A stretch of 64,000 nt of DNA from the IMG/VR virus record IMGVR_UViG_3300013296_000013, positions 1 to 64,000 of that record. One strand, 5' to 3'. The translations under genes were made by a program, and so were the position numbers. Within the stretch, counting starts at the first letter, position 1. Each line of letters opens with the position of its first letter. Shown here piece after piece: positions 667 through 52,028 of this stretch. A model generated the notes under the pieces. That model ran no database searches and was not told the origin of the DNA. It saw only the letters and a program-made list of their open reading frames with translations. The stretch is from a virus (taxonomy: Duplodnaviria > Caudoviricetes).

Positions 667-1084
667 TTTCTTTCATCTGAGCCAACAATTTATGCAACTC
701 AGCCGTAGATCCAACAAATACATTATTGTTCACCGTGCCTCCCTTTGGAGTCGCTGCTGGCTTTTCCTTACCGAGATCTTGTCGCTTCTTATGGAGTCCT
801 ACAAGATCATTGTTGAGATCTGATGATGTTTTAAGAAGATTTGCCACAACTTCGAACGCGCGAGGGTGTTGAGACTGCTTAGCTATCTCTAGAAGTTCAC
901 GAACTGCTTCTGAACCTTTTTCAATCAGATCTATAATATTTTCTCTAGCAAAATCGATATCTCGATCAGCTTCTTCTTGAATTTCATCTTCTGAAGCTGG
1001 TTGATAAACTATTACTGGTTTTGGATCATCCAATGATTTATCAACACTCATTCCAAGAGCTCTTTTGATTATGTCATCGCTCAT
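653..1084 (-). CDS. gp16: Terminase small subunit
   Basis: HPRAFEV and NNNVFVGSTAEL motifs typical of T4-like gp16; directly upstream of gp17. Confidence 0.95.
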   Translation of the reverse strand: MSDDIIKRALGMSVDKSLDDPKPVIVYQPASEDEIQEEADRDIDFARENIIDLIEKGSEAVRELLEIAKQSQHPRAFEVVANLLKTSSDLNNDLVGLHKKRQDLGKEKPAATPKGGTVNNNVFVGSTAELHKLLAQMKENGQS

Positions 1085-1893
1085 TCGTCACCCTTTAGAA
1101 TAGTAGTAATATATCCAAAGTCGTCATTAGCATTAATTTGTGTGTAAGGAATAGTATTGTTGATATCTGTCGTTGGCGTTCCATTAGCTGTTAAACCAGG
1201 CTGAATATGCACGATATTAACTAAGTTATTAGCATTATGATCAACACTATAGAAATCAGTGATGACATATTTGATAACTTTTCTACCCTGTCCGATAGGA
1301 CCGGTATATTGAGCTTTCATAGTGAAGTTTAGCGTCCAAACTATTCCTCTTCGATCTTGCATCGACCCCCATGATTGATTATCAACATCAATATTGTTTA
1401 GTGTTATTGGAACATCGAGTTCATAACCCATTTCTGGGATAATTTTTACGGTTACAGTTAATGCAGGAGTAAAATATGGAATTATGTTTTCTAAAACTCT
1501 AAGACCATCTTCTTCTTTGTCAGCATATATGAAGAGTTGAAAATTTAAATTGTATGGAACACCAGCAAATTGACTATTTACTTGGCCGGTTTGATCTACA
1601 AACCGGCGCTGAATAGTTGATTGCCCCATTCTTTCATTATCGAATGATGGAGCACTAACTAAAAATGCCATCGCTGGAGACACTGCTGCTACTTTACGAG
1701 TTAGATCTTGATCAGTATTCACTCTCGACATAAGTTTATCCTGAGAACCATATGTTAAAGGAACCTTGATAGTCTTAACATGATTATTAGAACCATCAGT
1801 ATATGGCACATCTATGCTGATGTCATTAAAGAGAGTTCCAAAAACAGTAACATATTTTCTAGTTAAACCGAAATAATAATTTGATCCAAACAT
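1081..1893 (-). CDS. gp15: Tail sheath stabilizer / tail terminator
   Basis: RKYVTVFGTLFNDI, KVPLTYG, ILENIIPYFTP motifs; gp13-14-15-16-17 synteny. Confidence 0.95.
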   Translation of the reverse strand: MFGSNYYFGLTRKYVTVFGTLFNDISIDVPYTDGSNNHVKTIKVPLTYGSQDKLMSRVNTDQDLTRKVAAVSPAMAFLVSAPSFDNERMGQSTIQRRFVDQTGQVNSQFAGVPYNLNFQLFIYADKEEDGLRVLENIIPYFTPALTVTVKIIPEMGYELDVPITLNNIDVDNQSWGSMQDRRGIVWTLNFTMKAQYTGPIGQGRKVIKYVITDFYSVDHNANNLVNIVHIQPGLTANGTPTTDINNTIPYTQINANDDFGYITTILKGDE

Positions 1894-7964: not shown

Positions 7965-10562
7965 ATGAGAGTTTGTATAGTAGATCACTTAGGTACTCCG
8001 TATGATGGATATACGTTAGAGTCAAGTGGCCTAGGCGGCAGCGAATCTGCTGTAATATGCATAGCACGCGAACTGGCTAAGATTGGTTTTACTGTTGATG
8101 TCTTTAATGACTGCAGTGAAAATCATCAGTGTGATAGAGTTCACTATAGGAAACGCAGCGAAGCTATAGATCATACATCAGAGCCATATGATCTGTTTAT
8201 TAGCAGCAGATCTCTAGTTCCATTCACTGAATATAATAATCTTCGTAACAAAGCCAAGAAGAAAGTTCTGTGGCTTCATGACACGTTTGTAGATGCTGAT
8301 GCTCTGTTAGAGAACTATGTTGTCAATGGGTTGATCGATGAGATCTGGACTCTATCTGATTTCCACACTAGCTATATCACCACGTGTAATCATGGTGTGA
8401 AGCGAATGCAAGAAGTGTTAAAGAGAAAAGTCTGGCAGACTAGAAATGGTGTGAATCTCTATAACGATTATGTTGACATCCAGAAGAAAGATAAAAATCT
8501 CTTCGTATTTAATGCTGCGGTCGATAAAGGATTGCCAGTACTTCTTAACAACATCTGGCCGAAAATCGTAAAACAGTATCCTACTTCTAAACTTAAGGTT
8601 ATTGGTGGATACTACAAGATGCATTCGATGGTCGAGGCGCAGAGAACACATTGGCACGGTCTTAAAGAAAAATACGACGGTAAAGACGGAGTTGATTTCA
8701 CTGGAGTTATCACACAAAAAGAAGTGAGTGATATCTTAACCGATGCCTCATACATGATATATCCACAACAGTTTCCTGAGACGTTTGGTATATCACTAGT
8801 AGAAGCTCTGGCTCACGGCGTTACTCCTATCACCGGAAGGTTTGGAGCGGCTGAAGAAACGGCTATCGAAGAAGGTAGTTGGTTGATGGACTACCCAGCG
8901 ACATCTAATGCTCTTTATCAGTTCGATGAGGAAGTTCACCAAAATGCTTTCTGCAACTTAGCGCTTCAAGCACGAACAAATGAATATCTATGGCAGCAAA
9001 AAGCCAATAAAGGTCTCATAGTTAGAGATGTGTGCGAATGGAATAAGGTAGCTCTCCAGTGGAAGCAGCACATATACAAGATACTCGACAGATATCTTCC
9101 ACTCGATGATTATCGTCAGGTCACCGATCTAAATCAACGGTGCAAAGAGATCTTCAATACCAGATTCGGTAACGAAGAAGATCATGTAGTTCAATGTGAG
9201 AGTGAATGGATGATCAACGTCATCGTTCCATTCAAGAACGCCGAGAAGTTCATCGGTGAGTGCATCGATTCTATCATCACTCAAAACTACGACGCCTGGC
9301 GTCTATATCTCGTGGATGATGCATCGGATGATAATACGGTCGAAGTCGTCGAAAACAAGCTCAAAGAATTGAACGACTTTCGTATCAAGTTTATTAAGAA
9401 TGACATTAGTGTCGGAGCACTACAAAATCAAGTATCTGTCTGGGAGGATGAGTGCTGGCCATATCCTGGATCTAAGAATATTATGGTTCTGATAGATGGC
9501 GATGATAGACTAGTTAATGATCCAAATATTTTCAGGAAGATCTGTCGTCTATACGTAAATGGTGCACAGATGACCTATGGTAGTTGCTGGTCAGAAGTTG
9601 ATAATATTCCTCTTATAGCTCAGGACTACCCACCAGATGTCAAAGAAAACGGAACATATCGAGAACACAAGTTTCCGTGGAACATTCCGTATACTCATCT
9701 ACGAACGTTTGAAGGTCGACTACTTCACAATATGGATGATGACGCTCTTCTTGATAGCGATGGTAAGTATTATCGCGCTGGCGGTGATTCAGCCTTACTC
9801 TATGCACTTCTGGAAGCTTCTAACCCCGATCGTATTGTTGCTGTCAAAGATATCTGGTACAGATATAATGACCTACATCCCAATAACGATTTTAAAATAA
9901 ACGCTGAAGAACAAACTCGTAATTCTAATGAGATATTGATGAAGAATATTAAAAAAAAGCGAATTTTAATTGGAATTCCGACCGCTCAAAACATTCATGC
10001 GGCGACTTTTAAATCGATCTACGATCAGATCATTCCAGATGGTTATGAAGTAGACTTTCAGTTCTTCTATGGATACTGCATCGACCAGGTGCGTAATCTG
10101 ATGGCTCATTATACTATCGAGAACGGCTATGACTATATCTTCTTTGTTGATTACGATATGGAGTTCGGGCCAGATACTCTAGAAAATCTTCTTCAGTTCT
10201 ATGATAATGGAACAGATGATGTTGCTATAGTGAGTGGGCTATATAGACAGCGTAGGAATGAAGTAGTTTATGAAGCTTATAGAAGTAATGATCAAGGTGG
10301 AGTAGAACATCTTCTACAAATACCAGCATTCTCGATTGGAATGAAAGTTCCAGCAGTAGGATTTGGGTGTGCACTGGTTAAGCGAGAAGCACTTCTAGCT
10401 GTTGGTTATCCATACTTCACATATCATCATGCTATTAAAATTGAAGACACTGTATCTGAAGACATCGATTTCTGTCAAAAAGTGACAGCTCGTGGTTGGA
10501 ATATCATACTAGAACCAAACGTGAAGTGTAAGCATCACGGTAATATTACATTTGAGGTATAA
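7965..10562 (+). CDS. Tri-domain glycosyltransferase (GT4/GT-B + two GT2/GT-A domains)
   Basis: LGGSESA and FPETFGISLVEALAHG (GT4); VIVPFKNAEKFI...VDDASDD...IDGDD (GT2); IGIPT...FFVDYD...SEDIDFC (second GT-A). Confidence 0.92.
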   Translation: MRVCIVDHLGTPYDGYTLESSGLGGSESAVICIARELAKIGFTVDVFNDCSENHQCDRVHYRKRSEAIDHTSEPYDLFISSRSLVPFTEYNNLRNKAKKKVLWLHDTFVDADALLENYVVNGLIDEIWTLSDFHTSYITTCNHGVKRMQEVLKRKVWQTRNGVNLYNDYVDIQKKDKNLFVFNAAVDKGLPVLLNNIWPKIVKQYPTSKLKVIGGYYKMHSMVEAQRTHWHGLKEKYDGKDGVDFTGVITQKEVSDILTDASYMIYPQQFPETFGISLVEALAHGVTPITGRFGAAEETAIEEGSWLMDYPATSNALYQFDEEVHQNAFCNLALQARTNEYLWQQKANKGLIVRDVCEWNKVALQWKQHIYKILDRYLPLDDYRQVTDLNQRCKEIFNTRFGNEEDHVVQCESEWMINVIVPFKNAEKFIGECIDSIITQNYDAWRLYLVDDASDDNTVEVVENKLKELNDFRIKFIKNDISVGALQNQVSVWEDECWPYPGSKNIMVLIDGDDRLVNDPNIFRKICRLYVNGAQMTYGSCWSEVDNIPLIAQDYPPDVKENGTYREHKFPWNIPYTHLRTFEGRLLHNMDDDALLDSDGKYYRAGGDSALLYALLEASNPDRIVAVKDIWYRYNDLHPNNDFKINAEEQTRNSNEILMKNIKKKRILIGIPTAQNIHAATFKSIYDQIIPDGYEVDFQFFYGYCIDQVRNLMAHYTIENGYDYIFFVDYDMEFGPDTLENLLQFYDNGTDDVAIVSGLYRQRRNEVVYEAYRSNDQGGVEHLLQIPAFSIGMKVPAVGFGCALVKREALLAVGYPYFTYHHAIKIEDTVSEDIDFCQKVTARGWNIILEPNVKCKHHGNITFEV

Positions 10563-36047: not shown

Positions 36048-36455
36048 TCACTTCGCCTTGCGACCGGGCTTCTTCGGGCCTTCGATGGCGAGGACCGGAG
36101 CCGGTTCGACCACCTCGAACTCCCCGTCGACCGATTCGAGTTGCTTCATTTCCATCTCGGCAAGGGCCTGCGCCTCGTAGGCCGCGACGGCATCGTCGCC
36201 CAGGAGAATGAAACGGTGGGCCGAATCGTGGCGAATATCGTCCTGGCGAACACCGTCCTTCATCACCTCGCCGATCGTACGACCACCCTCGAAGTAACCC
36301 TCGAACCGAGTGAACGACTGGGTGTTCTTACCCTTGGGGTTGTAGTCGATGTTGAGGAAGAGAGGCGTCGCGGCCTTGATCTCGTTCTTGGTGGGTTCCC
36401 GACCGTTGTTGGCCGAGGTGAAGGTCTCGATGAAAGCGTTCATCCACTTTGCCAT
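36048..36455 (-). CDS. Hypothetical early protein, 'NPK...GDDAV' family paralog A
   Basis: NPKGKNTQSFTRFEGY...GVRQDDIRHD...FILLGDDAV; GC-rich codons; own promoter and TTGGAG RBS. Confidence 0.85.
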   Translation of the reverse strand: MAKWMNAFIETFTSANNGREPTKNEIKAATPLFLNIDYNPKGKNTQSFTRFEGYFEGGRTIGEVMKDGVRQDDIRHDSAHRFILLGDDAVAAYEAQALAEMEMKQLESVDGEFEVVEPAPVLAIEGPKKPGRKAK

Positions 36456-36627
36456 TTCGTATCTCCAATCGCATCATCCGGGAACCCCTTGTTCCCCTTT
36501 GATGTTACCATTCTATCAAACACCTTGCACCTTGTAAACAAGTATTTTCAATCGAACCAAAAATAATTTGCATTGAAAATGGGTTGACATTTCGAACGGA
36601 TCGTGTTAGGCGCGCGGCCCAGTGATA

Positions 36628-37402: not shown

Positions 37403-38056
37403 CGTCCTTCTGTTCTAGGATGTAAGTGATCTCGTCGGCTACGAACTCGCCTACGTGCATCGAGTCTTCGTCTATCTGTTCGTCGCAGTCTTCGGCTACA
37501 GCATTCCACGCTTTGTTTCTGTCGCTGAATATGCCGAGGCAAGTAACCTCGCCTGGATAGCCGCCCGAACAGTCGTGCTTCATCATAACGAACATCAGAA
37601 CAGCTCCTTCGATTCGATCTGTACGTAGAAGTGATTTTGGTGAGTGATCGAGCCGTAGCGACTGTGGCTCTTCTGATAGACGTTACCGTCGTACGAGTAG
37701 AACTCGGTAGCGATCTCGTTTGCCGTAGCCGATCGTTCGCGTACGTGTTGGCCGAGTGGGTTCTCCAGCACGATGGCGTGGGTGTGACTCTCCTCGTCGA
37801 TCATCTGGCTGATCGCGTCCTCGACACTGATGTCGAGTTGATCTAGAGTGAAGCCGGCCGGTTCGATGACCAGTTCGCCGATCTCGTCGAGGTACGGTTC
37901 GATCTGGTCGCGCATGAGGTCGGCGAGCGTCGACACGTTCTTCGCCTCGATGATGTCGAGTACCTGCCTCGACTCGTCATTGGCCTCGCTCTCGAACAGG
38001 ACGACACGGATCGCTTTGGGCGAGTGGCGATATGCGTTCATCGAGTAGCTTGTCAT
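37392..38056 (-). CDS. Two acidic early hypothetical proteins (37595-38056, 37392-37595)
   Basis: Coupled ORFs downstream of TTGACA-17-TATAAT (38113-38085). Confidence 0.75.
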
Positions 38057-39504: not shown

Positions 39505-40638
39505 TTAATTGTTATTGTTTGGGAGATAGAAGTTGTTATATAGAACGCGTTCAGTATCACTCAGGTTAGTATGAATCGCCGAATAGTTCTCGATAGTAAT
39601 ATGATAACCATCGCCGCTGTCTTGGATGAAAGCGCCGCCACTGGCGTACGAATATCCGCGCGCATCGTCGCCATAAACTGTCGCAAAGTCTTCATCACTC
39701 GAATCGATCTCTTGACGTGATGCGACGAACTGTTCGAACGTAAGAACTCCTGGTTTCAGCGCTGGCTGAGGGGTGATCTCATCGACGCGAAGAGCGAACA
39801 TACGACCGAGATATTCGATCGTGATCGGAGCATTGAAATCCGAGAACGAGATGTGATCGATCACACTTCTAGGCTTTTTCATCTCAAGCCGAATAAGATC
39901 CATCACCCATTCGTATAGAGGGCAGTCTTGCATCATTTCACCTCAGCTATCATACACCACACGATAAAGATGATCGCCATGATGACCAAGAAGGGAATGC
40001 AAAAGATAAGGAACTGCATCGCTTCAGGCTGATGGCGACTCATCACGTGTACGTACCACGACTTGATGAGTCTTGGAGCGATGATGATCGCTCCACAGAA
40101 CCCAACGACTATAGCGACACGATATATAATTCGCCGAGGCGAATTGTGTTTGTTTCGGATGATCATATCAACCGATCCGAATAATATGGAGATCTCCGAT
40201 GTCGATCATCTCGACATCTACGAACTGTTCGATAATCTGCTGCTTGCGCCGGAGAGATCGATCCGTATTATGAATTCGCCCAGCTAGATCGCTGAACATC
40301 ATCTCGAGGAATTCCATCGATTGAATAGCTTCCTCAGTAGTCGAATGAGAGTGAACCATCATGCGCTCAAATAGCGTGACTACCATCTGAATGCTGCATC
40401 CGTCGCACATCGTCTTAGCGTCGCTTATCGAGATGCCGTTCTGTTTGGCGACCTCGGCGTACATCGTCTCGAGCATCGCATCGGCGATCCGAGCTTTCTC
40501 AGGCGACCGGTCGCCGAACCGAGCACCAGTAGCAGTGAGAATATGCATCTCGTCTTCACCGGGAGTGTGTTGGTTTGATATGCGTTGTGGGATGGTGGGT
40601 TCGCGATGTTCACTGCCGATGAAACGATGGTCATCCAT
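39505..40638 (-). CDS. Early operon: 40168-40638, 39933-40166 (two TM segments), 39505-39936
   Basis: Coupled ORFs after TTTACT-17-TATAGT (40690-40662) and a GGAGG RBS. Confidence 0.7.
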
Positions 40639-40710
40639 GTACTACCTCCATTTGTAGGTATACTATAACCCATGATGGGAATAAAGTAAACCTCTATTTT
40701 AGAGCTTACT

Positions 40711-41345
40711 TTATTGAACCGTCTTCGGTATCGGTGCGAGCTTTCTGCAGTGTTCGAACATGCGTGTTGCCACGAGCGGCGTGATGCCAGCATCAGTCTC
40801 GTCGGTCGTGATCGCAAAAAGCGCCGGGAGTGGTCCGATGGTGAAGATACCAATCATCTGCTCGTTGTCGAACGTTTGCAGTTCGTATCCGTCGTTATGC
40901 TTGAAGAACTGCTTGACCAACGGGAACATGTCGTCCAGCGAGTTCGGCCTGATCTCGCCGGTCCAGATGTCATTGCCGGTGCTGACGTTATAGAAGTGGA
41001 TGAACATCGGGCCAAGCGTAGTCGGCATGTTCGGATTCAGCTTGCTCATAACATCTCCAATCCATTTGAATAGTTTATTCTATCCACACCAAATGATTAG
41101 GATTCGGCGCTATAGAAATGGTTAAGCTTCTGAAAGACCATGACGATGTCGAACTCGTCGACCCACACCAGATCGTTCAGAACGAGATTAACAGGTTTGT
41201 CATCGTCGCCGGCGAGTTCGAACTCCATCGAACGCTTGATAATTCGGCTATCGAGCCCCTTGCGAGCGATCCGACCGAAGGCTTCAGCTTTCGTGAAGTC
41301 ACGAAAGCTCTTAGCTGTTCTCAGGCCTGTAAGAGTCGCTACCAT
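40711..41345 (-). CDS. Two early hypothetical proteins (41097-41345, 40711-41049)
   Basis: Clear RBSs; promoter 41403-41375. Confidence 0.7.
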
Positions 41346-44867: not shown

Positions 44868-45422
44868 TCAGAGCGATCGATGTACGCTATTATTCGAATT
44901 ATGAAAACGTTCGATCACCGACTCGTGGTTCTTCGACGGATCGAGAGATTTATTCTTGAACTTACTCTTACCAGTCGACATTGGGATACGTTGGACTCTG
45001 TGGTGTTTCCCGTCGATCTCTACCATCTTGATAGGACGACTGTCTCGCGCGCTCATCTGCTACCATCTCCAAGTGGAATTACACTCTAAACCAAAAGCTA
45101 AGCCGTGTAAAGGGCTATTTTTTTGGATGAATTAAATTTTAGTTAACGACGGATAACATTATGCGAGTGGCTGTCTATATGAAAAGACGCTTTGAGGATT
45201 GGCTACAGTATAGACCGTGGAATTAATCGTCACGGTCTTAGCAACTCGATTAGTTGGCTCTTCGGAGATGTTCTCGAGCTTATTCAGCTGATCAAAGAAC
45301 ATATAGCCGTCGTTATCTTCAGGTTGGAAGTCTTGAATGAAGATTGATTCGTTGTTTGTTGTGTACGTCATCGTCCATACTAAACCGTCAGACATGCGCA
45401 TCACTGCTTTTTGTGAGTTCAT
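44868..45422 (-). CDS. Two hypothetical proteins (45159-45422, 44868-45056)
   Basis: ORF track; 44868-45056 has its own promoter (45111-45083) and RBS. Confidence 0.55.
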
Positions 45423-45437
45423 AGCTATTCATTATTT

Positions 45438-45625
45438 TGAGGAGGATGACGGGCCGTCGGCTGTGCGGGAAGAGATGTTAACCCCACCATGGGGATCTCT
45501 TCGAGCCGACGGCCCGTGACCGCCCCCTGGAAAAAGGGGAGAGAGGGCGGTGTTCGAAGGACAACGAGGGGCTAGATTGCGACCGCGATTGGAGATAGTA
45601 GAGGCAATCCAATGCTATCCTTCGA
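45438..45625 (-). ncRNA. Candidate three-hairpin small regulatory RNA with anti-Shine-Dalgarno loops
   Basis: Promoter TTGACA-17-TATAAG (45658-45630); stems 45554-61/45618-25, 45575-80/45604-09, 45519-25/45545-51, 45449-62/45504-17; G-U extensions only on the minus strand; no credible ORF. Confidence 0.72.
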
Positions 45626-45666
45626 GTACCTTATATAATAGACACTAGAAAATGTCAACTAATTTT

Positions 45667-45998: not shown

Positions 45999-46523
45999 TT
46001 AGGAGAACGAGACCTGCTGTCGCCGGCTGCGCATCGAATAACCGATGCCAACGAACCCGATCATCATGAGAGACCAGGCCGCCGGTTCCGGAACCGCCGG
46101 AGTCGAATTGATCGTACCGGCATAGGCTGCCGTCACGTACGAGTGGCCGCTGATGAACAGGCTGTAGTTTCCCGCCGCAAAATGCACCGGGTTTCCGATC
46201 GAATCGATCAAAGACCAGACATCGGTCCAGCCGTTGAGGTGAGATTCGGTCGTGGTGTGCGTGAACGGAACGCCGCCGAGCGTGATGGATGAGAAGTCGA
46301 TATCACCCAGATGATTATTGCCCAGCAAGCTGATATTGATCACCGAGCTCGTGACTTCGGAATCAGAAAGAGCCACCGAATAGACATCGGTAAAATTACC
46401 ATTGCCGTGACCATTTCCAAAATATCCGACACCACCACCGGTGAGATCGATGTCTACGGCTGATGCCGGCGCAGCCATCATGGCTGCAGCGGCAAGAACA
46501 GCCATCGCAGTAATATTACGCAT
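45999..46523 (-). CDS. PEP-CTERM (PEPxxWA-type, FxDxF-like) exosortase-sorted surface protein
   Basis: Signal peptide MRNITAMAVLAAAAMMAAPASA; FTDVY motif; C-terminal VPEPAAWSLMMIGFVGIGYSMRSRR; GGAGG RBS. Confidence 0.93.
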   Translation of the reverse strand: MRNITAMAVLAAAAMMAAPASAVDIDLTGGGVGYFGNGHGNGNFTDVYSVALSDSEVTSSVINISLLGNNHLGDIDFSSITLGGVPFTHTTTESHLNGWTDVWSLIDSIGNPVHFAAGNYSLFISGHSYVTAAYAGTINSTPAVPEPAAWSLMMIGFVGIGYSMRSRRQQVSFS

Positions 46524-46646: not shown

Positions 46647-47066
46647 TTATCTCAATCGTGTGAGTTGAAGATAACCGTATTTTCCTTCGGGATAATATCT
46701 CGTAAACACTTGATATTTTCCCTCAACGTTTGCTTTGTAGATCTTCCGACGGTGAGACTCGGCCTCGCTCTTGGTGCACCATATCAGATTGACATGAGCG
46801 AGCGGCTGGTCTCCAATGTAAGAGAGAATATCTTCCCCCTTCTGGAGCGTTATCTTGTGAAGGGTTTCTATGCCACTCTGAGGAGCCAGTTGGCCTTGGA
46901 CATGGTTACCCACCATACCGGTGAACCATGGCTCTCTGGTCTTCCGAGATGGACGGTTTTCTCGTTCAGCTTTCAGCTGTTGTAGGGGAGTCGGTTTTAG
47001 AACTCGCTTCCGAATCGGCCGAGAATCTTTACCAAACCGAACTCGCAATACGTTGGATCGTCCCAT
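46647..47066 (-). CDS. Basic early hypothetical protein
   Basis: TGGAG RBS; promoter 47122-47094. Confidence 0.7.
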   Translation of the reverse strand: MGRSNVLRVRFGKDSRPIRKRVLKPTPLQQLKAERENRPSRKTREPWFTGMVGNHVQGQLAPQSGIETLHKITLQKGEDILSYIGDQPLAHVNLIWCTKSEAESHRRKIYKANVEGKYQVFTRYYPEGKYGYLQLTRLR

Positions 47067-47108
47067 GTACTATCTCCAGATGTAGACATGTTCATATTAA
47101 TCCAGTGA

Positions 47109-47446: not shown

Positions 47447-48022
47447 TTAGGCAGTCGCCGCCTCGGGCTTCGCAGCAGGTTCCTCGGGCTTGGCCGGCTC
47501 GATCCAGAGACCGGCCTGCTTCAGCACGTAGGGCAGCATCTTGTCCTTGGTGCCGATCGCCGGCTTTGCCTTCAGCTTCGCGTCGAGCAACTGCTCGAGG
47601 AAGGCGCGCCGCTGATCGTCGTTCTCGAGCGCCTGATAATTGACCGCGTCGTCGCCGACCAGGATGTGCATGCGGTCCATATCCCAGCTGACGTCCTTGC
47701 CGCGCACGCCGCGGTCATAGGCATCATTCAGTGTGGTGATCTGGCGGTGCGCGCCCTCGTCCTTCGACGGGTTGTAATAGTGCTCGAAGTGCTTGGGAGC
47801 GATCGAGCCGCGCTTCGGGTTCTTGACCGAAAGAACGAAGAGCGGCCGGATGACCGGCCCTTCAGCAGCGGGAGCAGCATCCGAGGTAGCAACGCCTTCG
47901 GGCATCAGCTTGTCGGCCGCGGCCGAACCGGAAACCGTGCTTGCGGCCTGGGTTTCGGCGGCCTTGCGGGCGCGCGAACCGGAACGGCTGGCACTCGGGA
48001 TATTTGCAACGGAAGCAGGCAT
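47447..48022 (-). CDS. Hypothetical early protein, 'NPK...GDDAV' family paralog B
   Basis: NPKRGSIAPKHFEHYY...GVRGKDVSWD..RMHILVGDDAV; start MPASV after a TTGGAG RBS; promoter 48114-48086. Confidence 0.8.
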   Translation of the reverse strand: MPASVANIPSASRSGSRARKAAETQAASTVSGSAAADKLMPEGVATSDAAPAAEGPVIRPLFVLSVKNPKRGSIAPKHFEHYYNPSKDEGAHRQITTLNDAYDRGVRGKDVSWDMDRMHILVGDDAVNYQALENDDQRRAFLEQLLDAKLKAKPAIGTKDKMLPYVLKQAGLWIEPAKPEEPAAKPEAATA

Positions 48023-48264
48023 GATAAAAATCTCCAACGATATGTTTCACCAAATCGGAGAGGATCCATCCTTCCCGATGAACCCTATGTAATACAGGTA
48101 TGCACCCTTGTAAATACCTTTTTCACCATTTTAATACGATAAAAATTATCCGTCATATCACGCCCTATAATATACACGCGTGCGGGAGATAAAATGTAGT
48201 TTACTTCGAATATTTTTTGTATTATAAGGTCTCACTGAGTGGGCAACTTTTGATTGGAGACAAA

Positions 48265-49146
48265 ATGTCAGCAAACCTGCATGAGATGAACCTCTCGAAG
48301 CGGGCCGTGACGCCCAGTTCTATCACCGCGATGAACGTTCTCCAATACAACTCGGCTAATATGCCTGATTTCGATCCAAAGATGAACGATGAGATGATCT
48401 ATAATCATCTCAGGAAGACGTTCGAGCGCGTTGAGGACTATACCAGAAAAGCGTTTGATGGTCGTCTACGATCTCTCATCATACCAGGACCAGCGGGTGT
48501 TGGTAAGACCACACCGTTGGAAAATATGAAGGAAGAGGAAGACCCTGATAACCTTCGGTCTAGTATCATGTCAGGTTATGTTCGTGCTCCTTACCTCTAT
48601 CGCAACCTATACAAGTATCGTAATAGAGGATCTCTATTAGCGTTGGATGATGCTGATAGTGTCTGGAAGGACATGCAGTCGCTGAACCTTCTGAAGAAGG
48701 CGACCGATACTACTCGAGAGCGCTGGATCACGTATGGTTCGGACTACAAGATGGAGGACGAAGAGACCGGTGAGCAACTCCCCAAGCGCTTTTTGTTTGA
48801 GGGTGGGGTGATGTTCATGACAAATATGAACTTCGAAGCAGCCAAGCGCAATTCATCTCTTCAACCCCACATCACAGCGATGGAATCGAGGTCATTTGTA
48901 TTTGATCTCGGCATCAAGACCAAGCGTCACCTTCTTCTCTGCATATATTACTATGCTAATGAGAAGGGTTTGTTTGACCGATTTGGTCTGTCGAGAGAAG
49001 AATATAAGCCTATCCTCGATTTCATTACCAAGAACATACACCGACTTCGGGAGATCAGTCTTCGCACGGCTGTAAAGTGCGCACAACTGATGGAGCTCGA
49101 AGGTGACAACTGGCAGGATGCTGCTGAATTGATGTTATTCCAATGA
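48265..49146 (+). CDS. AAA+/P-loop ATPase
   Basis: GPAGVGKTT (Walker A), LLALDDAD (Walker B), MTN, ESRS; ATG 48265 after TTGGAG; promoter 48200-48228. Confidence 0.88.
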   Translation: MSANLHEMNLSKRAVTPSSITAMNVLQYNSANMPDFDPKMNDEMIYNHLRKTFERVEDYTRKAFDGRLRSLIIPGPAGVGKTTPLENMKEEEDPDNLRSSIMSGYVRAPYLYRNLYKYRNRGSLLALDDADSVWKDMQSLNLLKKATDTTRERWITYGSDYKMEDEETGEQLPKRFLFEGGVMFMTNMNFEAAKRNSSLQPHITAMESRSFVFDLGIKTKRHLLLCIYYYANEKGLFDRFGLSREEYKPILDFITKNIHRLREISLRTAVKCAQLMELEGDNWQDAAELMLFQ

Positions 49147-51298: not shown

Positions 51299-52028
51299 AC
51301 TGAAGATCATAGCTGGTGCTTCTATATTAGCGCACATTATTGCTTGCTTGTCGATGAATTTGTTCTATCGCATAGACATCCATAACACTCAGTGGGACTA
51401 CTTTGCGTGTTTGATGGGAGCGATCATCGCTTACGCATATTTCGAGAAGAGGGGATGGACTAATGACGATGAAGAGAGTTTATCTGAAATCAGCTCCCTC
51501 GAATCACGATCAAATGAAACCGAACCTCTGGATACACATCTGGGAAGCTAAGCGATTTCATCGATCGCGCATTCCACAGAGGATGTGGTCATTCAGTTAT
51601 TCATGGACTGGTCGATGGCACAGGACTCGCAAGATCGACATTCCAGCAATGAAGAATAAACCAATAGGTGGATATGGAAGACGACCTAATCGATGATCTA
51701 ATCTTAGCGTTTCTACTACAAGAAAATGATCACATCGAGACGCGCCAAGATCTGGAGACATCTAAGCAGAGCGTAGCTTGGTTTACGAATGGCCTAAGTG
51801 AAATTCAACGAGAAGCTAACAAGCCTATTGGTGATATTAGGTGGACTAGAATGTTAGTTCGTTCGATGGGTGAGACAGCCGACAATACTATAAAGCGCGA
51901 CGCTGATAGTACAGCTCCAATCATCATTCGAAAGGAGAAGTGATATGAACTTTCTTCGTCAATATCCAGAATTTTATCCGATCTATTTCTGCGTTCTAGG
52001 ATTAGCATTGGTATGGTTATTGTTCTAA
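51288..52028 (+). CDS. Small hypothetical proteins (51288-51551 TM, 51463-51696, 51674-51943, 27-aa TM peptide 51945-52028)
   Basis: Overlapping packed ORFs; MNFLRQYPEFYPIYFCVLGLALVWLLF has an AAGGAG RBS. Confidence 0.55.

Follow-up and report, generated by a model that had tools for sequence, protein, structure and literature searches.

Does an uncultured T4-like phage encode a small structured RNA whose exposed loop pairs with the ribosome-binding sites of the phage's own genes? The question was raised by a sequence-only reading of a 64-kb stretch of phage DNA (hereafter the window), which described a promoter followed by a non-coding three-hairpin element at 45438-45658 with a loop complementary to several distant leaders. 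We asked in turn whether these features are present in the sequence, whether they are conserved in related phages, whether loop and leaders have changed together, and which genes the loop would address. The observation itself was confirmed, whereas the interpretation placed on it was only partly supported.

Genomic setting

The window is the first 64 kb of a 93-kb virus record, about half of a 182-kb genome (L003). The baseplate, tail and replication genes are T4-like, and the locus lies in a block of short genes with many sigma70-type promoters. An intact PEPxxWA/FxDxF PEP-CTERM gene at 45999-46523 (minus strand), kept at 74% identity in the related phage B described below, has its only plasmid relatives in Sphingomonadales. 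This points to that order as the probable host by inference, while a search for the host in GTDB returned nothing.

Promoter and structure of the RNA element

The element and the gene behind it are composed of the following features:
45630-45658 (minus): sigma70-type promoter, TTGACA-17-TATAAG
45554-45625 (minus): hairpin 1, two stacked helices with four G-U pairs and a C-rich bulge at 45566-45571
45581-45603 (minus): loop 1, a lineage-specific putative anti-RBS seed
45519-45551 (minus): hairpin 2, with a loop at 45529-45541 that holds the conserved core CCCC-U3-5-CC
45449-45517 (minus): hairpin 3, with C/U-rich internal loops
45423-45448 (minus): C-rich tail and A-rich leader lacking a Shine-Dalgarno (SD) sequence, with no U-tract terminator
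45159-45422 (minus): 87-aa gene without an SD, directly behind the RNA; all-beta model, no fold match

The predicted fold has an energy of -87.9 kcal/mol (z -7.75, with 0 of 200 shuffles reaching it). The hexamer TATAAG lacks the last T of the sigma70 -10 box, and the promoter was consequently missed by a consensus scan. The same hexamer is, however, found at the promoter of the T4 NrdC.10-like ATPase in three phages, and the promoter of the RNA is kept in relatives. The four G-U pairs of stem 1 are present on the minus strand, but neither this G-U asymmetry nor folding energy settles the strand: the plus strand also folds well (z -4.97), and in four of seven homologs the opposite strand folds lower. 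The strand assignment therefore rests on the conserved promoter.

Nor is a discrete RNA of about 190 nt shown, since no intrinsic terminator was found. The 87-aa gene begins 26 nt after hairpin 3, and the RNA is the 5' part of a predicted transcript for this gene. Rfam searches at the gathering score and at E-values up to 10 gave no credible family. A tRNA- or tmRNA-like reading of the 3' end was rejected, as ARAGORN called no gene in the window and the CCA-like end seen in phages B and C is absent here.

Conservation in related phages

Searches by blastn against cultured phages and two pattern scans of IMG/VR found no copies, since the stems diverge, and syntenic copies were instead located through neighboring proteins. 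With the window phage designated A, copies B (L005:7150-7365, minus strand; ATPase 59% identical) and C (L011:372-590) have the same promoter and three domains, including a hairpin 1 counterpart with different stem letters and the same tail and SD-less leader without a terminator. Copy D (L012:9186-9262; proteins about 40-50% identical) keeps the promoter but is shorter, with two hairpins and no hairpin 3. The fold z-scores of B, C and D are -7.77, -6.10 and -5.91, respectively. In the four phages hairpin 2 has stems of 10-14 bp that differ in sequence yet remain paired around the same loop core. More distant two-hairpin elements with anti-SD loops sit near the 87-aa ortholog in E (L013), F (L016) and H (L015), though their homology rests on position and shape only, and the E and F loops resemble the plain 16S tail. 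A fifth close relative (SRR26290402) has the same gap before the gene. A hairpin in record G001 was rejected because it lies in a coding region. Taken together, a conserved structured RNA is very likely.

The 87-aa gene is adjacent to or within three genes of the RNA in all seven copies. Its protein family has 13 relatives at E<=1e-10, and the protein gives a confident all-beta model (pLDDT 92) with no fold match in PDB or BFVD. A BrnT/RelE-like fold suggested by weak Atlas rows found no support in PDB or viral structure searches (best Z 2.8), which neither shows nor excludes a known fold. The cultured Alishewanella phage Slicko01 (L032) has the 87-aa homolog but no anti-SD hairpin upstream. 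It carries three promoters (L032:8105-8125, 8340-8360 and 8775-8795), each followed by a boxA-like CTCTTTAACAA element that resembles rRNA antitermination signals, and a structured non-coding stretch at about 8800-9040. In phage E, a 415-aa protein with a release-factor (RF-1/GGQ-type) domain is encoded just upstream of the RNA region (L013:8698-9945, plus strand), with similar-sized genes at the same place in L015 and L016, and the called 179-aa gene at L013:10001-10540 looks like a false fusion that reads through the RNA hairpins into the 87-aa ortholog.

Complementarity between loop 1 and phage leaders

Every leader match listed in the sequence-only reading is present in the sequence; the tags, and a conserved 5' UTR block of the 36455 gene, are as follows:
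36460-36472 (minus): target tag, 13/13, leader of gene 36048-36455; the ortholog leader co-varies in L009
36482-36505 (minus): 24-nt 5' UTR block of the 36455 gene, identical in phages A, B and D, holding the complement of the loop-2 core
47068-47078 (minus): target tag, 11/11, leader of gene 46647-47066
45060-45072 (minus): target tag, 13 bp with one G-U, leader of gene 44868-45056
48252-48260 (plus): target tag, 9/9, leader of the T4 NrdC.10-like ATPase 48265-49146 (31% identical to NrdC.10)
41053-41062 (minus): candidate target tag, 10/10, gene 40711-41049; the syntenic leader in phage B keeps the A-type tag, so it does not co-vary
48030-48037 (minus): candidate target tag, 8/8, gene 47447-48022
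40640-40650 (minus): weaker candidate, 11 bp with one G-U, gene 40168-40638

The 36455 and 48022 genes are paralogs (33% identical) of an unnamed phage family, and apart from NrdC.10 the targets have no family. The chance expectation given for a 13-nt match, about 0.02 in 64 kb, is arithmetically right for uniform bases. Under a stricter null, in which the anti-SD core of the loop was held fixed and the flanks were shuffled, p was 0.0004-0.014 for A and 0.0002-0.003 for D, but 0.02-0.25 for B. In phage A, three of the four genome-wide matches of 10 nt or more are in leaders, which make up 1.2% of positions. Loop 1 is predicted to cost about 2.7 kcal/mol to open.

The 8-nt match of loop 2 is present at 36493-500 and 41353-60. 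The 24-nt block that holds the first of these (also at about 17698 in L009 and about 37527-37550 in G002, of phage D) precedes a protein that is only 46-64% identical among the three phages, and it forms a small hairpin with a purine loop. Complementarity to this purine run may explain why loop 2 is conserved, but two invariant sequences cannot show pairing.

Co-variation of loop and leaders

Conservation of the loop-target pairing in relatives had been set beforehand as a test of the proposal, and the proposal passed it. Loop 1 differs between phages, and the leaders of the same genes differ with it. The ATPase leader reads GAUUGGAGA in A, GAUGGAGA in B and UAGCAUGGAAGG in D, each the complement of its own loop. 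Over four ortholog families (the ATPase, 47066, 45056 and 36455 genes) in A, B and D, the phage's own loop gives the longest perfect run in 10 of 12 leaders and ties in 2, and by duplex energy it is best in 10 of 12. This comparison covers three phages, that is, two loop changes.

When all called leaders with perfect runs of at least 8 nt were counted (at least 9 nt after the slash), phage A leaders gave 10/6 to loop A, 1/0 to loop B and 2/0 to loop D, and phage D leaders gave 11/5 to loop D and 0/0 to loop A. At 8 nt or more, phage D leaders gave 1 to loop B, and phage B leaders gave 4 to loop B and 2 to loop A. The diagonal of the six-phage table is the highest of 720 pairings, although E and F are not independent and the gene calls for A and D are from our own simple caller. 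Phage B alone is weak, and with opening costs included loop D scores as well on B leaders. Two leaders carry the other phage's tag type, and no excess of G-U over A-C was found at match edges (p 0.33). In phage D the strongest loop-1 duplex (-27 kcal/mol) is with the leader of a structural gene (G002:7065-7868, ortholog of window 1081-1893) whose phage A leader has no tag. Further strong intergenic hairpins occur in phage D at G002 46004-46393 and 51414-51653, one with a C/U-rich loop.

Scope of the predicted regulon

Tags of 8 nt or more are found in 7 of 35 early-region leaders and in 3 of 102 others (p 0.003). Among 148 annotated leaders of a Sphingomonas megaplasmid, used as a proxy and not the true host, 2 reach 8 nt and none 9 (7/35 against 2/148, p 0.00015). 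Loop 1 thus appears tuned to a chosen set of the phage's own genes, most of them first behind a promoter (clear in B, borderline in A and D), and not to all early genes nor obviously to the host. The proposed general shut-off of early genes and silencing of host mRNAs with GGAGA leaders are therefore not supported.

Proposed mechanism and alternatives

The reading we favor, with moderate confidence, is that the element is a trans-acting anti-RBS riboregulator of the phage's own genes. The promoter, the structure with its exposed C/U-rich seeds, and the co-varying tags at SD spacing on separate transcripts and both strands are established here from sequence, folding and comparison with relatives. 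That host sigma70 polymerase transcribes the element from its early-type promoter early in infection, that a stable RNA accumulates, and that loop 1 physically pairs over 8-13 nt with the SD region of the ATPase, 47066, 45056 and 36455/48022 mRNAs are inferences, of which functional loop-leader pairing is itself likely. Repression and its timing are likewise inferred: by analogy with anti-SD sRNAs such as AbcR (PMC8844928), covering the SD would most likely block 30S loading, so that these proteins would be made in a short burst and then damped as the RNA builds up, making it an RNA counterpart of T4 RegB. Loop 2 probably adds a second contact on the invariant 5' UTR of the 36455 gene, and the RNA would be either cut from, or act as part of, the transcript of the SD-less 87-aa gene, which the loops would spare; both are also inferred.

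Co-variation supports pairing but does not show its sign, and it remains possible, though unlikely, that the outcome is not plain repression: the RNA might guide a nuclease or a partner protein such as the linked 87-aa protein, protect the tags from a host or phage SD-cutting factor, or help to load ribosomes on tagged messages. The persistent proximity of the 87-aa gene and the likeness of the E and F loops to the 16S tail are consistent with this view, whereas the duplex covers the SD itself, which in tested anti-SD sRNAs blocks initiation (PMC8844928), and the 87-aa family also occurs without such an RNA upstream in Slicko01. A more speculative and improbable extension is that the RNA is the addressing part of a phage ribonucleoprotein, possibly with the co-transcribed 87-aa protein, that reads lineage-private RBS tags to cut, protect or preferentially translate a chosen set of phage mRNAs, with the tags diverging between phages as a self versus non-self code in mixed infections.

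Three other explanations appear less likely still. A mainly host-directed anti-SD RNA or Hfq/sRNA sponge, with the phage matches a by-product of SD-like composition, would account for the several C/U-rich loops and the conserved loop 2, and 27 of the 148 Sphingomonas leaders contain GGAGA while 29 match loop 2 over 6 nt; however, the loop-1 flanks track each phage's own leaders, and 8-nt matches are rarer in the proxy. A cis-acting leader (stabilizer, attenuator or translational switch) of the 87-aa gene operon is suggested by the missing terminator, by the RNA running into that gene, by the tagged 45056 gene downstream on the same strand, and by phage D, where loop 1 can pair in cis with the RBS of the next gene. 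Yet co-varying tags on the opposite-strand ATPase, the upstream 47066 gene and the 36455 gene 9 kb away cannot be explained in cis, and in D and H the next gene is a different one. A DNA operator, or a leftover of duplicated promoter-leader cassettes present inverted inside the hairpin, is the least likely: the early region does have repeated promoter-leader cassettes and the match edges show no G-U bias, but the complement sits inside a hairpin loop in every copy, tags in leaders occur only in the sense orientation (10 vs 0 and 11 vs 0) and at SD spacing, tagged leaders share no longer upstream cassette, and tags switched in the same orthologs across lineages.

Comparison with known systems

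In the 2025 review of phage sRNAs (PMC12197685) and in our literature searches, which reached few subscription journals and did not extend to the candidate list of PMC10690425, we found no description of a T4-like phage RNA with several own-RBS targets and co-evolving tags. Early-gene damping in T4-like phages is known through the proteins RegB and RegA, and an RNA that does this through a co-evolving private RBS tag would add a regulatory layer to lytic phages. It also names its predicted regulon from sequence alone, including the widespread but uncharacterized NrdC.10 ATPase, and the natural loop/tag pairs of three phages provide ready-made compensatory controls, usable in reporters without culturing the phage.

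As in the cuckoo sRNA family of alphaproteobacteria (RSs0680/CcsR, alpha-r14/NfeR1; PMC4615179), with which the sequence-only reading had compared it, the element has adjacent hairpins (2-4 in that family) with variable stems and anti-SD loops. Cuckoo loops all carry one fixed 9-nt motif, however, whereas here the loops lack this motif and differ from each other, loop 1 changes by lineage with its targets, and the RNA is phage-encoded with no Rfam hit. The other comparison made in that reading was with AbcR1/AbcR2 (alpha-r15; PMC8844928), which share two distinct anti-SD seeds in single-stranded regions, many targets, and pairing at the RBS. These are Hfq-bound host sRNAs for ABC transporter mRNAs, while the present RNA has no sequence match to them and no U-tail terminator, and its predicted targets are phage genes. 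Membership of either family is therefore not supported.

The c4 antisense RNA of phages P1/P7 (PMC12197685) is also a phage RNA that pairs through loop sequences with RBS regions of the phage's own mRNA, with specificity given by sequence differences between phages. It controls one antirepressor operon in temperate phages, whereas the element described here lies in a T4-like phage, would address several scattered genes on both strands, and has no Rfam C4 match. The T4 RegB endoribonuclease and RegA repressor (PMC3014915) act in post-transcriptional damping of early phage mRNAs at GGAG SD sequences; searches of three partial genomes for RegB and RegA, run without a positive control, returned neither. 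Those factors are proteins, whereas the element described here is a predicted base-pairing RNA with an extended, lineage-specific tag and a smaller target set.
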